A stretch of 4,709 bases of DNA from IMG/VR virus record IMGVR_UViG_2690316142_000012, positions 1 to 4,709 of that record. One strand, written 5' to 3'. The number at the start of each line of letters is the position of its first letter. Within the stretch, counting starts at the first letter, position 1. The notes beneath the pieces were generated by a model, which worked only from the letters and a program-made list of their open reading frames with translations, made no database searches and was not told where the DNA came from. This DNA comes from a virus. Taxonomy: Duplodnaviria > Heunggongvirae > Uroviricota > Caudoviricetes. Below are positions 1,424 to 4,709 of the stretch, one piece after another. A program made the position numbers and the translations under genes.

Positions 1424-1452
1424 TTGCCTTTGTGTGTATGCGTGTGTATAAT
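1424..1452 (+). promoter_or_regulatory. candidate sigma70 promoter of hicAB
   Basis: -35 TTGCCT (1424..1429), 17-bp spacer, consensus -10 TATAAT (1447..1452), about 24 nt upstream of the hicA ATG; spacer is an alternating purine-pyrimidine tract (TGTGTGTATGCGTGTG). Confidence 0.5.
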
Positions 1453-1475: not shown

Positions 1476-1658
1476 ATGAAATCTGCTGACCTGTTGAAAG
1501 AACTGATAGCTGCTGGTTGCGAGTTGAAACGGCATAAGGCAAGCAGTCACCAGATATGGTGGTCGCCAATAACAGGAAAAACTTTTCCTGTTCCTCATCC
1601 TAAAAAGGACTTGCCGCTAGGTACTGTCAGATCGATCAAAAAAATGGCGGGGATTTAA
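1476..1658 (+). CDS. hicA: HicA-family type II toxin (mRNA interferase), 60 aa
   Basis: GGGAGG RBS 4 nt upstream of ATG; protein has HicA hallmarks: small size, a His-containing segment (SSHQIW) and the characteristic C-terminal PHPKKDLPLGTVRSIKKMAG motif; immediately followed by a HicB-like gene. Confidence 0.9.
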   Translation: MKSADLLKELIAAGCELKRHKASSHQIWWSPITGKTFPVPHPKKDLPLGTVRSIKKMAGI

Positions 1659-1666
1659 TCCCCGCC
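1646..1666 (+). other. perfect 9-bp stem hairpin spanning the hicA stop codon (GGCGGGGAT-tta-ATCCCCGCC)
   Basis: Inverted repeat read directly; hicA TAA stop (1656..1658) sits in the loop; no T-run follows, so not a simple terminator; 7 nt upstream of the hicB RBS. Confidence 0.5.
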
Positions 1667-1682
1667 GACTTTGGAGGTAGCC

Positions 1683-2120
1683 ATGTTCTTTTCTGTTGGT
1701 GTCGAAACACCGAAAGATGATCATACAGCATACGGTATCACCGTTCCGGTTTTTGATTGCTTTGATTTTGGATGTGTTTCTGCTGCTGATTCTCAGGCAG
1801 AAATACCCGCAATGGCGCGTGAAGCGATATTGGCAATCGTGGAAGAGATGGTAATAAGCGGTGCTCATTCTGTTGATGATATTCATGATGAAGGGTGTTT
1901 GACTTATTCCGCCAACCCAAATTATAACCACTGTGATAGCTGGTTTGTAATTGATGTTGATTTGTCAGAAATTGAGGGCAAACAACAACGTATTAATATT
2001 TCATTGCCTGATGTATTGATTCGTCGTATTGATGGATATGTGAGAGAAAGTGGTGGCGTATACAAAGATCGTAGCCATTTTCTGGCTCAGGCGGCACGTC
2101 ATGAACTTGCATATAAATAA
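1683..2120 (+). CDS. hicB: HicB-family type II antitoxin (145 aa) with C-terminal ribbon-helix-helix DNA-binding domain
   Basis: ATG at 1683 with GGAGG (1673..1677) 5 nt upstream (ORF track extends to a TTG at 1671); N-terminal HicB-like region and C-terminal RINISLPDVLIRRIDGYV...RSHFLAQAARHEL typical of RHH (CopG-like) domains; directly downstream of hicA. Confidence 0.85.
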   Translation: MFFSVGVETPKDDHTAYGITVPVFDCFDFGCVSAADSQAEIPAMAREAILAIVEEMVISGAHSVDDIHDEGCLTYSANPNYNHCDSWFVIDVDLSEIEGKQQRINISLPDVLIRRIDGYVRESGGVYKDRSHFLAQAARHELAYK

Positions 2121-2124
2121 AACT

Positions 2125-2152
2125 ATCCCCGCGTTGTGCGGGGATTTTTTTT
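2125..2152 (+). terminator. strong intrinsic terminator after hicB, probably bidirectional
   Basis: Perfect 8-bp GC-rich stem ATCCCCGC (2125..2132) / GCGGGGAT (2138..2145), 5-nt loop, then T8 (2145..2152); on the minus strand the same hairpin is followed by AGTTTTATTTAT, so it may also end the convergent minus-strand operon. Confidence 0.8.
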
Positions 2153-2159
2153 GATAGCT

Positions 2160-2221
2160 AACCGCTCGCCGCAGTCCAGCGACCGAGCATAGCGAGCGAG
2201 TGACGAGGAAGCGGAAGATCC
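2160..2221. other. segment resembling ColE1/pMB1-type plasmid backbone sequence (origin-proximal region of pBR322/pUC)
   Basis: From memory of the pUC/pBR322 sequence (ACCGCTCGCCGCAGCCGAACGACCGAGCGCAGCGAGTCAGTGAGCGAGGAAGCGGAAGA): the window has ACCGCTCGCCGCAG..CGACCGAGC..AGCGAG..CGAGGAAGCGGAAGA in the same order; roughly 80-85 percent identity by eye, not computed. Confidence 0.45.
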
Positions 2222-2250
2222 ACCGTTGCCAGGAGAAAAGCAGGTACGCA

Positions 2251-2571
2251 CTATGCGTTCTGCCCTAGTGATGCTTTCACAAACCACGCAGCCTGAACTA
2301 TTACGCCATGAATCCAGCGCAAATCGGCATCACGATTTTCTTTTTTCATTTTTTCGCCACTTAAAGCCTTGCTTACGTGACTTTTTACCAGATTTTCGTG
2401 TAATTCTTTTGCTTCTTCAATTGTGAAACCACCAGGCAAATTTGGCGCTTCTGCTTCCAGCGATGCCAGTGCGATTTCATAAGCCCGACGCTCAATATTG
2501 TCTCGGACGTCCAGGCTGCCTATACGCTCTCTGATTTCTTTAATCAGTTCTTTGTCGGTTAAAGTGGTCAT
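2251..2571 (-). CDS. hypothetical prophage early-region protein (106 aa); N-terminal module shared with the 136-aa protein
   Basis: ATG overlaps the stop of the upstream 171-aa gene (ATGA); AAGGAA RBS 7 nt upstream; shares the motif IALASLEAEA and a 19-nt nucleotide identity with gene 3385..3795. Confidence 0.7.
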   Translation of the reverse strand: MTTLTDKELIKEIRERIGSLDVRDNIERRAYEIALASLEAEAPNLPGGFTIEEAKELHENLVKSHVSKALSGEKMKKENRDADLRWIHGVIVQAAWFVKASLGQNA

Positions 2572-3083
2572 GCTGCGTTTCCTTCTTTCTTATTAACAAT
2601 TACACCGTCATATATTTCATTAAGGTGTCCTCTTAGCTCCATGCGCCTTAATGCAGATAACATGTAATCGCATTCAACCTGCTTATTCCCAGTAAATGGC
2701 TTATCGTCAGGATTACCCCAACAGCAATTACCCCTGGGCCATCCATGTACTTTCCGTACTCTTCCGTTAACAACGTGAAGTAATCCCCAGCCGGGAGGTA
2801 AATCCTCAACTGAAATAATTTCCGGCTCACTAATAAAGAATCGCCAGTCGCCCATGCCAAGTGAGGGATTTTTACGGAAACGCTTTTTTCTATCTGCCAA
2901 CAAGTCAGCACGAGAACACTTCGCCTCTATCAGGCATGATGCTGAATTTCTGAATCCCATAGCATCTGGCTGTTCTCCGGTACTGGTTACAGCAACAAAG
3001 CGGTCATGAAAGCAAACCTTGAACCCGTTGCGCTTAAGGAACTTGTACGCAATCTGACAGAGTTCGTGGTGTGTTAACGCCAT
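2568..3083 (-). CDS. PD-(D/E)xK nuclease-like protein (171 aa), possibly MmcB-like; tentative
   Basis: Start at ATG 3081..3083 (MALTHHELCQ) preceded by GGGAAAGGAAAGTGAT; motif order E...PD(AMGF)...(L)IEAK(CS) matches the PD-(D/E)xK nuclease core; the ORF-track N-terminal extension (MGKESD) is probably not translated. Confidence 0.7.
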   Translation of the reverse strand: MALTHHELCQIAYKFLKRNGFKVCFHDRFVAVTSTGEQPDAMGFRNSASCLIEAKCSRADLLADRKKRFRKNPSLGMGDWRFFISEPEIISVEDLPPGWGLLHVVNGRVRKVHGWPRGNCCWGNPDDKPFTGNKQVECDYMLSALRRMELRGHLNEIYDGVIVNKKEGNAA

Positions 3084-3119
3084 ATCACTTTCCTTTCCCA
3101 TGTTGTCATGTGTTAGTCC

Positions 3120-3383
3120 TTATCCTGCTGTGCTTTCAACTGATGAGGGGAATAAAATCTTTTCATCAAATCCGGCATTCATATCATGGACAGCAACACA
3201 CCAATCCATCGACGAACGATTATCAAGAGCCTCCATGATTTCATCCATGCGGCGCAGGTCATACAGGTAAATGCTTTTATCGCCAATGGTGTAAAAACCA
3301 ATTTTTTTCGGTGATGGGCAGCGATCAAGAACGTCCTGTAATTCGTTCAACCATGCCCGTTCTTTTTTTGTTAAAGTTGCCAT
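3120..3383 (-). CDS. hypothetical prophage early-region protein (87 aa)
   Basis: Start at ATG 3381..3383 (MATLTKKERAW) preceded by AAAGGAGAGTGAT; the upstream gene's stop lies 1 nt before this ATG (TGA-T-ATG); the longer ORF in the track is an out-of-frame read-through of the upstream gene's 3' end. Confidence 0.7.
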   Translation of the reverse strand: MATLTKKERAWLNELQDVLDRCPSPKKIGFYTIGDKSIYLYDLRRMDEIMEALDNRSSMDWCVAVHDMNAGFDEKILFPSSVESTAG

Positions 3384-3396
3384 ATCACTCTCCTTT
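3242..3396. repeat. 155-bp exact direct repeat, copy 1 (identical to 4555..4709)
   Basis: Base-by-base identity read from the sequence; covers the RBS and first 47 codons of the 87-aa gene; left boundary is sharp (3241 T versus 4554 A). Confidence 0.95.
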
Positions 3397-3795
3397 CCCA
3401 TGAAGCATAGCGGCGCGGCAGGCGTTCCAGCCTGTAGCGTATGCAGCCGCTTTGCTGCTGCCTTCAACTGGCGCATCCTGCCAATACATTTCATCCGGCA
3501 CTACCGGCGCTGGCAAGGCTGCGTGATAGTAGAGTGGCATAGTTTTGTACAGTGGTTCGCCAGGACTTCCGTCAACCTGATTCCATTCTTCAACCCAGGC
3601 ATCAACAACCGCTTTGCTGGTTGATACATGTTCTTCTGAATCTACATTTTGTCCTGATATACAGAACATAACTGCCTCTGCTTCCAGCGATGCCAGAGCA
3701 ATTCGTGCCAGTTCCATTTGTTCGCCACGAGTAAGTCCGTTATCAAGCGGATTTTTAATGAATAATTTGATACGTTCTTTGGTTATAGCGTTCAT
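3385..3795 (-). CDS. hypothetical prophage early-region protein (136 aa); N-terminal module shared with the 106-aa protein
   Basis: Start at ATG 3793..3795 (MNAITKERIK) preceded by AAGGAGAGTGAG; the upstream 203-aa gene's stop lies 1 nt before it (TGA-G-ATG); contains ELARIALASLEAEA. Confidence 0.7.
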   Translation of the reverse strand: MNAITKERIKLFIKNPLDNGLTRGEQMELARIALASLEAEAVMFCISGQNVDSEEHVSTSKAVVDAWVEEWNQVDGSPGEPLYKTMPLYYHAALPAPVVPDEMYWQDAPVEGSSKAAAYATGWNACRAAMLHGKGE

Positions 3796-3796
3796 C

Positions 3797-4408
3797 TCAC
3801 TCTCCTTTGATGCGAATGCCAGTAGCGCGGATTGCATCGATGACTTCAGAAACTTTGTATGCCATTACCGTTTGGTAATCATCGTGAAAATCTGTTCGAT
3901 GAAGCATGCTGCTACGTTCCGGGAGCGATATTTCCCGAGCATCCAGTTCCTTAACGCGCTCCTCCAGTTCGTAGACCCTGCATTGTTCTCTATCATCAAT
4001 CAGATATAACCCAAGACATTCGCTTTCTACCCAACCGCCAAAATCATGATCGTAACGCTCACATGAAAACTCACCGTCACCGTCCTTTGTTGGAATGGTG
4101 TAACTATCTAATGGGCCACCATATGTCGGCACATTTCCCAATGTTGGATGCTCAATCCACATGAAAAATGCACGTCCGGTTATTGGGCAAATATCTGGCC
4201 GCCATTGGTTACGAACAGCCTTGGTTTCGGATAATTCTTCAGCGTGTTGTTTTACTTCCTCAAGCTCGTATCGCTTCAGGTTTGCGATATTTGATAAATT
4301 CAGCGCCAGTACAGCCAGGTCATAAACCTCTTCGGCAGTGACATCGCTGTTCAGTCCCATTTCATGGCGATATATGATTTTTTCTACTCGTTGTTTTGTG
4401 ATCGTCAT
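3797..4408 (-). CDS. hypothetical prophage early-region protein (203 aa); possibly ead/Ea22-like, unverified
   Basis: Longest ORF in the operon; preferred start ATG at 4406..4408 (MTITKQRVEK) with GGAG 11 nt upstream; ORF track extends to a TTG at 4432; ends KGE-stop within the RBS of the next gene. Confidence 0.65.
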   Translation of the reverse strand: MTITKQRVEKIIYRHEMGLNSDVTAEEVYDLAVLALNLSNIANLKRYELEEVKQHAEELSETKAVRNQWRPDICPITGRAFFMWIEHPTLGNVPTYGGPLDSYTIPTKDGDGEFSCERYDHDFGGWVESECLGLYLIDDREQCRVYELEERVKELDAREISLPERSSMLHRTDFHDDYQTVMAYKVSEVIDAIRATGIRIKGE

Positions 4409-4516
4409 TTTTCTCTTCACTCCGATATACAAGGATTACCACACCCCCTCTGCTGATTGCGCGAGCTGGATCCCCTGGTTCCATGCCGTCAATTCCGAAG
4501 GCTTCGGAAAACGCAT

Positions 4517-4696
4517 TCATTGCCTTCTGGCGTTCATCCTGCTTACGGCGTTTACATCCATGCGGCGCAGGTCATACAGGTAAATGCTTTTATCGCCAAT
4601 GGTGTAAAAACCAATTTTTTTCGGTGATGGGCAGCGATCAAGAACGTCCTGTAATTCGTTCAACCATGCCCGTTCTTTTTTTGTTAAAGTTGCCAT
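4517..4696 (-). pseudogene. truncated chimeric duplicate of the 87-aa gene (first 47 codons identical, then 12 unrelated codons and a stop; 59 aa)
   Basis: Lies in copy 2 of the 155-bp repeat; translation from ATG 4694..4696 gives MATLTKKERAWLNELQDVLDRCPSPKKIGFYTIGDKSIYLYDLRRMD then VNAVSRMNARRQ-stop; the preceding 4698..4709 encodes a KGE-stop gene end as at 3385 and 3797. Confidence 0.4.
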
Positions 4697-4709
4697 ATCA
4701 CTCTCCTTT
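4555..4709. repeat. 155-bp exact direct repeat, copy 2 (identical to 3242..3396); continues to the window edge
   Basis: Offset of exactly 1313 bp from copy 1; true extent unknown because the window ends. Confidence 0.95.

Follow-up and report, generated by a model that had tools for sequence, protein, structure and literature searches.

The window, by which we mean the whole stretch of 4,709 nucleotides that was analysed, is, as judged from its sequence, an IncI2-type plasmid, and the toxin-antitoxin operon on it is the HicA(T)B operon of this plasmid group. Positions 1458-2200 are base-for-base identical to pHNSHP45, and the 7 mismatches that separate the two over 861 nt are confined to 1406-1457 and 2201. 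The toxin gene hicA is the first gene of the operon, before the antitoxin gene hicB, and the two open reading frames do not overlap, a 24-nt spacer lying between them (1658 -> 1683). According to the ORF list, the genes at 2251-4432 converge on hicB. The features of the locus are as follows:

1424-1429 and 1447-1452, plus strand: hicAB promoter, -35 TTGCCT and -10 TATAAT (promoter scan 10/12)
1432-1439 and 1442-1449, plus strand: tandem GTGTGTAT boxes, putative HicB operator
1476..1658, plus strand: hicA toxin gene with its stop TAA at 1656-1658 (ORF list; 60 aa, C-terminus ...KKMAGI)
1638..1644, plus strand: run of seven A from Lys-Lys codons (from the sequence), just 5' of H1 and forming a U7 tail for H1 on the minus strand
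1646..1666, plus strand: hairpin H1 across the hicA stop, 9-bp G/C-rich stem and 3-nt loop; known from the literature as a hicA-specific 'noncanonical intrinsic terminator'
1670..1677, plus strand: U tract TTT (1670-1672), then the hicB Shine-Dalgarno GGAGG (1673-1677) (from the sequence)
1683..2120, plus strand: hicB antitoxin gene, ATG at 1683 (145 aa; HicB-like N-domain)
2125..2145, plus strand: hairpin H2, 8-bp stem and 5-nt loop, with the arms of H1 in the opposite order; terminator scan matches on both strands
2146..2152, plus strand: T-run of H2 (from the sequence), 8 T's when T2145, the last stem base, is counted

The hicA product matches Pfam PF07927 HicA_toxin (E 1e-15) and is annotated as WP_000833470.1 on pL9-3 and pHNSHP45, and the hicB product, annotated as WP_000466318.1 on the same two plasmids, matches PF15919 (E 1e-26). 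Its C-terminal domain was assigned as ribbon-helix-helix by Lin et al. (NAR 2025, PMC11878559). The tandem GTGTGTAT boxes are probably the HicB operator, and the box pair plus the -10 is kept in 73/87 homologous loci. The E. coli K-12 hicAB operon has promoters P1 and P2 and is autoregulated by HicB (cited in PMC11878559); the present locus resembles it in its toxin-first order, in HicB repression at the promoter, where a conserved tandem GTGTGTAT box overlaps the -10 here, and in its very short leader. In K-12, however, the HicA:HicB ratio is set by promoter choice and favours HicB, whereas in the subfamily with H1 it is set by an internal hairpin and favours HicA; the proteins are only ~20% identical to those of K-12 (PMC11878559). 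Downstream of the operon, a ColE1-like segment at 2161-2218 is probably vector sequence and was the source of short matches to the phage collection, which held no hicAB relative of use.

H1 lies at the hicA-hicB junction and consists of GGCGGGGAT (1646-1654), the loop tta (1655-1657) and ATCCCCGCC (1658-1666). The hicA stop is indeed enclosed by this hairpin, as the earlier note had claimed, with two bases of the TAA in the loop and the third as the first base of the 3' arm. The 5' arm corresponds to the last four hicA codons (M-A-G-I) and most of the 3' arm to the first 8 nt of the spacer. The RNA folds at -18.1 kcal/mol (z -4.8), and no shuffle folds as well. On the plus strand, the tail GACUUUGG holds GAC and then a UUU of 3 nt only; the 7-8-nt U tract of a canonical terminator is absent. 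Lin et al. described a 24-bp spacer, a G/C hairpin with a 'UUU tract (n = 3)' behind it, and GGAGG as a strong RBS, all of which match the window, and as in that paper a GGAGG RBS precedes both hicA and hicB. A search of Rfam gave three matches, all below threshold (the best at 28.3 bits, where the gathering score is 46).

H2 consists of ATCCCCGC (2125-2132), the loop gttgt and GCGGGGAT (2138-2145), followed by T's up to 2152; it folds at -15.6 kcal/mol (z -4.2), again better than any shuffle. It is an ordinary Rho-independent terminator that ends the hicAB operon. Its identification as a terminator stem was borne out by the plus-strand match in the terminator scan, by the T-run and by Lin et al., who presented it (PMC11878559) as the canonical operon terminator with a U-rich tract of n = 8. 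It shares with canonical terminators the G/C-rich 8-bp stem, the 5-nt loop, the 7-8 U's that follow the stem at once and the A-rich stretch before it, a layout that H1 also has when read on the minus strand. On the coding strand H1 departs from them in its 3-nt spacer, in having only three U's before the Shine-Dalgarno, and in a stem that overlaps a translated stop. The terminator scan matches H2 on both strands, so that it looks bidirectional, and transcripts of the convergent minus-strand genes probably end there as well. The length of its T-run varies among metagenome copies, in one of which the run is interrupted.

The two hairpins around hicB do have the same arms in swapped order, as had been noticed before. 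GCGGGGATTT is found as a direct repeat at 1647-1656 and 2138-2147, and ATCCCCGC at 1658-1665 and 2125-2132; the inverted repeats are AATCCCCGC / GCGGGGATT and ATCAAAAAAA (1635-1644) / TTTTTTTGAT (2146-2155). The 8-mer GCGGGGAT occurs 4 times in the window on both strands together, against 0.07 expected (0/200 shuffles above 1), and in 50 kb of pHNSHP45 only at H1 and H2. At a single locus, chance is unlikely to place the same 8-mer in two hairpins separated by 470 nt, and pure coincidence is not a comfortable explanation. One arm-sharing clade in a family-wide survey is nevertheless not extraordinary, because the arm has at its core a hexamer of G and C alone with A/T on either side, a composition found in many terminators. 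Among ~90 homologous hicAB lineages, H2 with the arms of H1 is restricted to the IncI2 and pNE92-2 clade, and a match of at least 10 nt between H1 and the downstream region (longest common substring) was found only in the window, in locus L010 and in pNE92-2. Relatives at 76%, 72%, 68% and 49% HicB identity have unrelated terminators, and outside the clade no hairpin built from at least 7 nt of an H1 arm was seen in the distinct hicB downstream regions (0/89). The 7-nt GCGGGGA downstream of a Klebsiella hicB was considered as a second case of arm sharing and set aside, being a lone copy without a partner. The IncI2 and pNE92-2 classes have the same H1 arms and the same H2 arms although their flanks differ by 12%; these unchanged arms do not discriminate between explanations, because selection on each stem alone would give the same result.

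Published work on pHNSHP45 bears directly on what H1 does. Lin et al. (PMC11878559) reported that the RNA-seq signal falls sharply just past hicA and that hicA and hicB mRNA stand at ~10:1, a ratio equalised by a 13-bp deletion (RNA-seq and qRT-PCR). Without the hairpin more HicB protein was seen by western blot, and the deletion mutant lost its competitive advantage; the deletion also lowered overall hicAB mRNA, for which the authors invoke HicB autorepression. By these published experiments, H1 at the junction holds hicB mRNA ~10-fold below hicA, lowers HicB and is needed for the plasmid-competition phenotype. Their HicA(T)B system is the same DNA over 1458-2200, with the same spacer, hairpin-UUU, GGAGG and canonical U8 terminator, and the element shows no difference from ours; H1 and H2 of the IncI2 hicAB operon are, as elements, already known. 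The main text of PMC11878559 contains neither 'identical' nor 'palindrom', and arm sharing is not mentioned in the sections consulted. The suggestion of the earlier note that the hairpins set differential hicA and hicB expression holds for H1, on published data from an identical sequence (PMC11878559), and is not supported for a pairing between the two hairpins.

H1 is not confined to IncI2 plasmids. A similarity-guided search, used to locate the hicA genes of homologues, recognised hicA in 79/86 loci, which gave 69 distinct junctions. A hairpin across the stop that folds at -8 kcal/mol or lower is present in 49 of these 69, and ~8 more have a 5-bp version. Most relatives from Enterobacterales, Orbaceae and Vibrionaceae, whether the locus is chromosomal or on a plasmid, have kept an H1-type hairpin through compensatory changes, and many chromosomal homologues retain it in quite different gene contexts. 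Variants include GCGGGC/GCCCGC (Vibrio), GCAGG/CCTGC, GGCAGGC/GCCTGTC, GGGAAT/ATTCCC and a 14-bp version in Photobacterium, and a scan of viral contigs added three relatives, all with H1 and with unrelated terminators. Covariation was assessed with a covariance model and with an alignment-free chimera permutation test; the model was used because MAFFT on 42-nt junctions gave an ungapped alignment in which shorter-loop variants were out of register. In the permutation test, a 3' arm matched the 5' arm of its own locus better than a swapped one (0/20000 permutations overall, 111/20000 in minority classes), and by pair counting 80.2% of cells are paired, against 42-58% with the partners slid. The covariation score lies above all 500 shuffles, with 16 double-change cells against 4.1; these double changes fall in only 4/9 H1 pairs, a number that 71/500 shuffles reach, and the alignment was fitted to the model and the sequences are related. 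The element of Lin et al. is the same as H1, and its conservation, which PMC11878559 reports among IncI2 plasmids only, is here far wider.

Taken with these data, we consider it likely that H1 is the published internal attenuator and H2 an ordinary terminator, that both fold locally, and that the identity of their arms is a peculiarity of one clade. This identity is a quirk of the IncI2-type and pNE92-2-type plasmids for which no role was detectable, and it is presumably functionless. It may have come from local copying or template switching off H1, or from coincidence between two G/C-rich stems.

The first of these origins deserves closer attention, and we regard it as quite plausible, if somewhat short of probable: the shared arms would be a historical scar, H1 having given rise to H2 through local duplication, gene conversion or template switching. 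The new H2 would then have been retained simply as a good terminator, so that such an event explains the origin of the arms and not a function. Two tandem H1 units would read ATCCCCGC-x-GCGGGGATTT at their junction, and the match outreaches the stem in the 10-nt direct repeat GCGGGGATTT. In pNE92-2 the 10-nt pair AAATCCCCGC / GCGGGGATTT is perfect, and the inverted repeat ATCAAAAAAA / TTTTTTTGAT flanks the two hairpins. The absence of the 8-mer elsewhere in the 50 kb of pHNSHP45 and of arm sharing outside the clade (0/89) also points this way. Moreover, palindrome-associated rearrangements are seen at H1: in plasmids with hicA deleted the homology breakpoint lies mid-H1, and one metagenome contig shows a precise 20-nt excision of H1. 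On the other hand, an intermediate form was not found among the homologues, and at 76% identity the terminator of the relatives is already another one. The matches in ATTT and in the A-run are expected (from an Ile codon plus the stop and from Lys codons on one side, from a terminator tail on the other), which leaves the G/C hexamer as the real coincidence, and present sequences do not allow the mechanism to be reconstructed.

A further alternative concerns the mechanism of H1 rather than its identity. H1 might be mainly a translation-gated or post-transcriptional element rather than a transcription terminator: a processed hicA 3' hairpin would block 3'-exonucleases, and the stem would act as a barrier beside the hicB RBS that is melted by a ribosome at the hicA stop. 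Conservation across the family extends to the hairpin and to a stop placed in or beside its loop but not to the U tract, the T's after the stem numbering 0-4 in 8 nt (with the exception of one misplaced hairpin call) and falling to zero in Dryocola (L057) and Buttiauxella (L080). The hicB Shine-Dalgarno follows 5-7 nt past the stem in most homologues, and in the window itself the GAC and the short UUU after the plus-strand stem also count in favour of this reading.

Intercistronic stabilising hairpins, such as the REP elements in malEFG and the hairpins of the puf operon, set unequal mRNA levels within an operon. H1 is like them a stable stem-loop at the 3' end of a more abundant upstream cistron, a place where a U tract is unneeded; unlike them, H1 is not a REP sequence, overlaps a stop and abuts the next RBS. 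The lower hicAB mRNA and higher HicB of the deletion mutant would be expected also from the loss of a stabiliser or of a translational barrier. The label of terminator given to H1 rests on steady-state RNA, and the methods section of PMC11878559 includes neither in-vitro termination nor 3'-end mapping. Furthermore, when a terminator lies only a few bp behind a translated gene, its activity in vivo is almost completely repressed by the ribosome (Li et al., NAR 2016, PMC4824070). Against this stands the RNA-seq drop together with the ~10-fold ratio that the 13-bp deletion abolished (PMC11878559), for which termination is the simplest reading, and in some relatives (Pectobacterium) UUUUC comes straight after the stem. 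We therefore hold a mainly post-transcriptional action to be rather unlikely, although because the U tract is not conserved and the stem overlaps a translated stop, the mechanism of H1 may be termination, RNA stability or translational gating.

The geometry of H1 suggests a related and still more tentative idea, which we put forward as doubtful: H1 might be a family-wide ribosome-gated switch that forms, and cuts hicB expression, only when no ribosome is finishing hicA. Gating by the ribosome is suggested because the stop codon is in the loop and the 5' arm is coding, a geometry in which a ribosome finishing hicA would have to melt or occlude H1. In this respect H1 resembles the stop-adjacent terminators that are repressed by a terminating ribosome (PMC4824070) and classical ribosome-mediated attenuation; it differs in having neither a leader peptide nor an alternative antiterminator hairpin. 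Expression of hicB could then be cut by termination, by stabilisation of a hicA-only RNA or by a block of the hicB RBS.

H1 might also act on the other strand, where the hairpin with its U7 tail would make a canonical terminator that halts antisense transcripts of the convergent gene array leaking through H2 before they reach hicA and the promoter. Read on the minus strand, H1 is GGCGGGGAT-taa-ATCCCCGCC-ATTTTTTTGA, with a terminator scan match at 1666..1646 (9 pairs, 7 of them G-C) and a fold of -18.3 kcal/mol; the layout scores as a terminator with the tail ATTTTTTTGA, the genes at 2251-4432 converge on hicB, and the stretch 5' of H1 is A-rich in most homologues (6-7 A in 9 nt). The A-run, however, encodes the Lys-Lys of a HicA motif that is conserved, and it becomes shorter where the residues are R-K; H2 already looks bidirectional, and the many chromosomal homologues that retain H1 do so among quite different neighbouring genes. 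Wobble pairs also favour the plus strand (16 G-U against 5 A-C), an excess that the coding constraint on the 5' arm alone could explain. On balance a minus-strand role seems improbable.

The least probable of the alternatives, and in our view a very improbable one, is the regulated long-range pairing proposed in the earlier note, in which the 5' end of the hicB mRNA (H1 arms) would pair with its 3' end (H2 arms) and so set the HicA:HicB ratio. In its favour, each arm at one site has an exact complement at the other, both sets are unchanged between two plasmid classes 12% apart elsewhere, and a ribosome at the hicA stop would briefly free the 3' arm of H1. RNA folding nevertheless did not support such a pairing. 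Relative to the minimum free energy structure with both local hairpins, forcing 1658-1665:2138-2145 costs +9.2 kcal/mol (pair probability 4e-8) and forcing 1647-1654:2125-2132 costs +17.5 kcal/mol (2e-13), whereas the local H1 and H2 stems have pair probabilities >0.9999. The two long-range helices cross as a pseudoknot, and therefore only one could form. The minimum free energy structure of the whole transcript retains both hairpins, and its only long-range helix joins the A-run with the U-tail. During transcription, moreover, the 5' arm of H2 adjoins its own partner, H1 having closed ~470 nt earlier.

Nor do homologues show the two hairpins changing together, an outcome that the earlier note had itself named as refuting its proposal. 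In all other lineages H1 is kept with unrelated downstream hairpins, and where its arms change, in Vibrio, Cedecea, Rahnella, Gilliamella and Photobacterium, the terminators do not follow. Plasmids with hicA deleted have an intact H2 and a decayed remnant of H1, and one metagenome copy carries a T>C change in the 3' arm of H1 with H2 unchanged.

The other suggestion of the earlier note, that the hairpins are the footprint of a palindromic insertion, was rejected: hicA, H1 and hicB follow one another in 79/86 loci whatever lies after hicB, H1 occurs without H2 in all other lineages, and plasmids that lost hicA still have H2, so that the bracketed segment was not gained or lost as a unit. Hairpin ends of IS200/IS605 or REP type were discarded as hicB is never mobile relative to hicA in the 86 loci, and so was binding of HicB or another protein to both palindromes as operators, since the half-sites meet head-to-head in one hairpin but tail-to-tail in the second, and other lineages lack H2.

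To conclude, the hicAB operon helps IncI2 mcr-1 plasmids persist, and its internal hairpin is the published lever for a high toxin:antitoxin ratio. The arms that this hairpin shares with the operon terminator are neither conserved nor energetically plausible as a regulatory device. Our results add a modest extension, namely that the stop-codon-spanning hairpin is old and widely conserved in this HicAB subfamily and is not a speciality of IncI2 plasmids. If the ribosome-gated switch considered above were true, the hicAB operons of many Gammaproteobacteria, on chromosomes and plasmids alike, would couple antitoxin output to translation of the toxin.

An 861-nt segment carrying hicAB matched 384 E. 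coli records, and 414 of the 419 places matched lay on plasmids some 55-65 kb in size; the annotations name HicA/HicB, on replicons of IncI2 type, and the Pfam matches were HicA_toxin and HicB_lk_antitox. Positions 1458-2200 of the window are identical to the IncI2 reference plasmid pHNSHP45, and the seven mismatches to it within 1400-2260 fall in the promoter region and at position 2201. The operon has been dissected on this mcr-1 plasmid by Lin et al. (Nucleic Acids Res 2025; PMC11878559). According to the sections of that paper on the operon, hicA mRNA exceeds hicB mRNA about 10-fold, the two are equal after a 13-bp deletion in the hairpin at the hicA-hicB junction (H1), H1 reduces HicB protein, the H1 deletion mutant loses the plasmid-competition advantage, and the operon ends in a canonical terminator with eight U's, which is the hairpin downstream of hicB (H2). 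Since positions 1458-2200 have the published sequence and these elements are described there, both hairpins and the functional effect of H1 were already known and characterised by experiment; the earlier observation on them is itself correct. The features concerned are:

1476-1658, + strand: hicA, 60 aa, end codons ATG GCG GGG ATT TAA
1646-1666, + strand: H1, GGCGGGGAT-tta-ATCCCCGCC, read from the sequence
1683, + strand: hicB start codon ATG, with GGAGG upstream at 1673-1677
2125-2145, + strand: H2, ATCCCCGC-gttgt-GCGGGGAT, then T's up to 2152

The 5' arm of H1 is formed by the last four hicA codons. The earlier note had placed the hicA stop codon (1656-1658) in the H1 loop, which holds for two of its bases, the third being base 1 of the 3' arm. 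The arms common to both hairpins were confirmed by a repeat search of the window, with exact direct repeats of GCGGGGATTT at 1647 and 2138 and of ATCCCCGC at 1658 and 2125, cross-complementary 8-9-mers between the two sites, and an inverted pair ATCAAAAAAA/TTTTTTTGAT at 1635-1644 and 2146-2155. The arm 8-mer occurs four times in the window (0.07 expected) and, outside the two hairpins, is absent elsewhere in 50 kb of pHNSHP45. These common arms go unmentioned in the operon sections of PMC11878559, the main text of which contains neither "identical" nor "palindrom". RNA folds gave -18.1 kcal/mol for H1 and -15.6 kcal/mol for H2, each better than 200 of 200 shuffles. A terminator scan flagged H2 on both strands and, together with the T tract and the canonical terminator of the paper's operon sections, agrees with the reading of H2 as a terminator stem; H1 was flagged on the minus strand, its U7 tail being supplied by Lys-Lys codons.

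It had been proposed that the hicB mRNA could pair its 5' end with its 3' end through these arms, which might set differential hicA and hicB expression. In the whole-transcript fold both local hairpins were retained, their stems having pair probabilities >0.9999. Forced pairing of 1658-1665 with 2138-2145 cost 9.2 kcal/mol (pair probability 4e-8), and that of 1647-1654 with 2125-2132 cost 17.5 kcal/mol (2e-13). These helices cross each other and therefore could not coexist without a pseudoknot; moreover, during transcription H1 closes some 470 nt before the 3' arm of H2 emerges beside its own partner. The sole long-range helix in the MFE structure joins the A-run 5' of H1 to the terminator U-tail, a weak A-U helix whose 5' half is translated coding sequence. 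Long-range pairing is thus not supported; differential expression stands through the effect of H1 published in PMC11878559.

Homologous hicAB loci were taken from PLSDB plasmids, 80 species genomes, and metagenome and viral contigs, with HicB identity to the window of 51%-100% in genome loci and down to 43% in the most distant plasmid copy. Only the window, its twin L010 and the pNE92-2 class (88% HicB identity) had a match of at least 10 nt joining the H1 region to sequence downstream of hicB, and the pattern ATCCCCGC-N3-8-GCGGGGAT was confined to IncI2-type loci and pNE92-2. The downstream terminators of other relatives are unrelated to H2:

L125 and L126 (HicB identity 76%): AAAAAACGCCCCTCTACAGGGGCTTTTTTT
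Salmonella p48k (72%): unrelated terminator
Klebsiella (68%): unrelated terminator
Vibrio (49%): ATGGCGAAGTG...CATTTCGCCATTTTTT

Outside the clade of IncI2-type and pNE92-2 loci, none of 89 distinct downstream regions held a hairpin built from at least 7 nt of the H1 arm, arm sharing being absent in every other lineage. This is the outcome that the earlier note had named as refuting its reading, and it speaks against arm covariation between the two hairpins. Within the clade both arm sets are constant and the H2 loop and flanks vary, as expected if purifying selection acted on each stem on its own. The arm identity is a clade-specific curiosity.

Because the ATT-TAA end of hicA and the A/T closure and U tail of a terminator both give ATTT beside a G/C core, the real coincidence amounts to about a G/C hexamer. 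From the sequence, H2 may plausibly have been copied from H1, as two H1 units in tandem would have exactly ATCCCCGC-x-GCGGGGATTT where they meet; the match is up to 10 nt long, and the pNE92-2 arms AAATCCCCGC/GCGGGGATTT form a perfect pair. In Rahnella sp. PCH160 (L044), hicB is followed by an unrelated terminator, CGGGCGGGGAG-aaat-CTCCGCCCG-TTTTTTT, which has the 9-mer TCCCCGCCC (complementary strand) in common with the H1 region of loci L024 and L029, and shares with the main-class H1 arm the 8-nt core GGCGGGGA; the H1 of L044 itself differs, and the case shows chance recurrence of such G/C cores in terminators. Palindrome-associated rearrangements occur at the site, hicA-deleted IncI2 variants losing homology mid-H1. 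In metagenome contig ODYN01016730.1 (L127), exactly 20 nt comprising H1, and with them the hicA stop codon, are missing at the junction equivalent to window 1645-1670 (..AAAAAAATGG|ACTTTGGAGG..), which is either palindrome excision or an assembly artefact. Contig L107 carries T>C in the 3' arm of H1, with H2 unaltered.

The effect of H1 reported in the operon sections of PMC11878559 is a decrease of hicB RNA and protein relative to hicA, and the published description of H1, as a hicA-specific noncanonical intrinsic terminator, remains the best one and is retained. The methods section comprises primer extension, qRT-PCR, western blots and lacZ fusions; in-vitro termination, mapping of 3' ends and measurement of half-lives are absent from it. 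A mechanism that is mainly post-transcriptional or gated by translation is rather unlikely, and is left open because of the non-canonical tract, the stop codon inside the hairpin and the lower total hicAB mRNA in the deletion. The tract 3' of the stem is never canonical in homologues (0-4 T in 8 nt, bar one misplaced hairpin call; no T in L057 and L080), and what is conserved is the stem and its spacing of 5-7 nt from the hicB SD. In E. coli, the ribosome represses almost fully a terminator that lies a few bp 3' of a translated gene (PMC4824070); with the hicA stop codon inside the hairpin, H1 should therefore act mainly on transcripts without a ribosome finishing hicA. The lower total mRNA was explained by the authors, in the same sections, by stronger HicB autorepression, and loss of a 3' stabiliser would equally account for it. 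A minus-strand terminator role for H1 is possible, if weakly suggested by the scan, but the A-run is simply Lys-Lys codons and H2 already looks bidirectional.

Several other elements were observed around the operon. In the region 1432-1452, the hicAB promoter has its -10 TATAAT overlapped by tandem GTGTGTAT boxes, probably the HicB operator; the arrangement leaves a very short leader ahead of the hicA SD and is kept in homologous loci as distant as those of Shewanella and Orbaceae (73 of 87 loci). A 48-nt repeat family (608-655, 1209-1256, 1348-1395) contains the palindromic box CTTTACA-N-TGTAAAG, which, with up to 2 mismatches, gave 15 strand hits at 8 sites in pHNSHP45 (L090) versus 0.84 expected. 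All 8 sites are between 7.07 and 13.0 kb (7072-12999), four flanking a ParA/MipZ-like gene and four upstream of hicAB, and the 48-nt repeats also border rearranged segments in hicA-deleted plasmids (L002); they look like operator or centromere-like sites, or module-junction repeats. In IncI2 plasmids that lack this hicA and whose hicB is reduced to a truncated pseudogene, another hicAB pair, different from this one and with overlapping ORFs, lies about 0.8 kb upstream (L002, pLR-62-2_4; 1663-2255 and 3027-3311 of that locus); this second pair may fall in the overlapping-ORF class named in PMC11878559.

A 158-nt duplication (3239-3396 and 4552-4709, 99% identity) comprises the upstream region and 5' portion of a small gene on the minus strand (product MATLTKKERAWLNELQDVL...), and the window stops within copy two. 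Related start regions (GCCATATCACT(C/T)TCCTTTCCCATG) at 3079 and 3379, and more diverged ones at 3775-3808, suggest that small genes sharing a translation-initiation cassette have been shuffled within an array; a Pfam scan of six ORFs other than hicAB gave no match. Directly after H2, positions 2161-2218 are 85-90% identical to a sequence of small mobilisable ColE1-type plasmids, thousands of which carry it (at least 5000 PLSDB records, most at 80-90% identity), and resemble the pBR322 primosome-assembly (single-strand initiation) site. Phage matches to this segment, including a phiX174 record, are probably vector sequence, and one E. coli chromosome has only this piece (window 2148-2224).

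A recognisable hicA was present in 79 of 86 loci. Among 69 distinct junctions, a stop-spanning hairpin at least as stable as -8 kcal/mol was present in 49 and a 5-bp version in about 8 others; about a dozen had no hairpin, including Erwinia L032, Limnobaculum L085/L086, Alishewanella L088 and Rosenbergiella (C-terminally extended HicA). The conserved A-G-I C-terminus puts a constraint on the H1 5' arm, yet the arm's synonymous changes are mirrored in the non-coding arm, with the following variants:

Vibrio: GCG GGC with GCCCGC
Rahnella, Cedecea and Enterobacteriaceae RIT693: GCA GGG with CCTGC
Enterobacter TMH.L2: GGCAGGC with GCCTGTC
Buttiauxella: GGGAAT with ATTCCC
Gilliamella: own form, HicA ending AGLL
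Photobacterium: 14-bp form

When 3' arms were swapped among loci, cognate pairs averaged -10.9 kcal/mol versus -9.0 ± 0.4 kcal/mol for permuted ones, which equalled the cognate mean in 0 of 20000 permutations (111 of 20000 with minority classes only). In the covariance-model alignment, 80.2% of cells were paired versus 42-58% with partners slid 1-3 columns, and covariation score and double-change cell count exceeded 500 of 500 shuffles, for an alignment fitted to the model, with related sequences and double changes in only 4 of 9 pairs. Besides plasmids, the hairpin is found on the chromosomes of Photorhabdus, Xenorhabdus, Pectobacterium, Yersinia, Rahnella and others. Since it is conserved family-wide with compensatory changes, H1 is old, and the footprint of a palindromic insertion, which the earlier note had alternatively suggested, is not supported. 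The useful residue of this analysis is a stop-spanning hairpin conserved across the family, an old structural feature of this HicAB subfamily.
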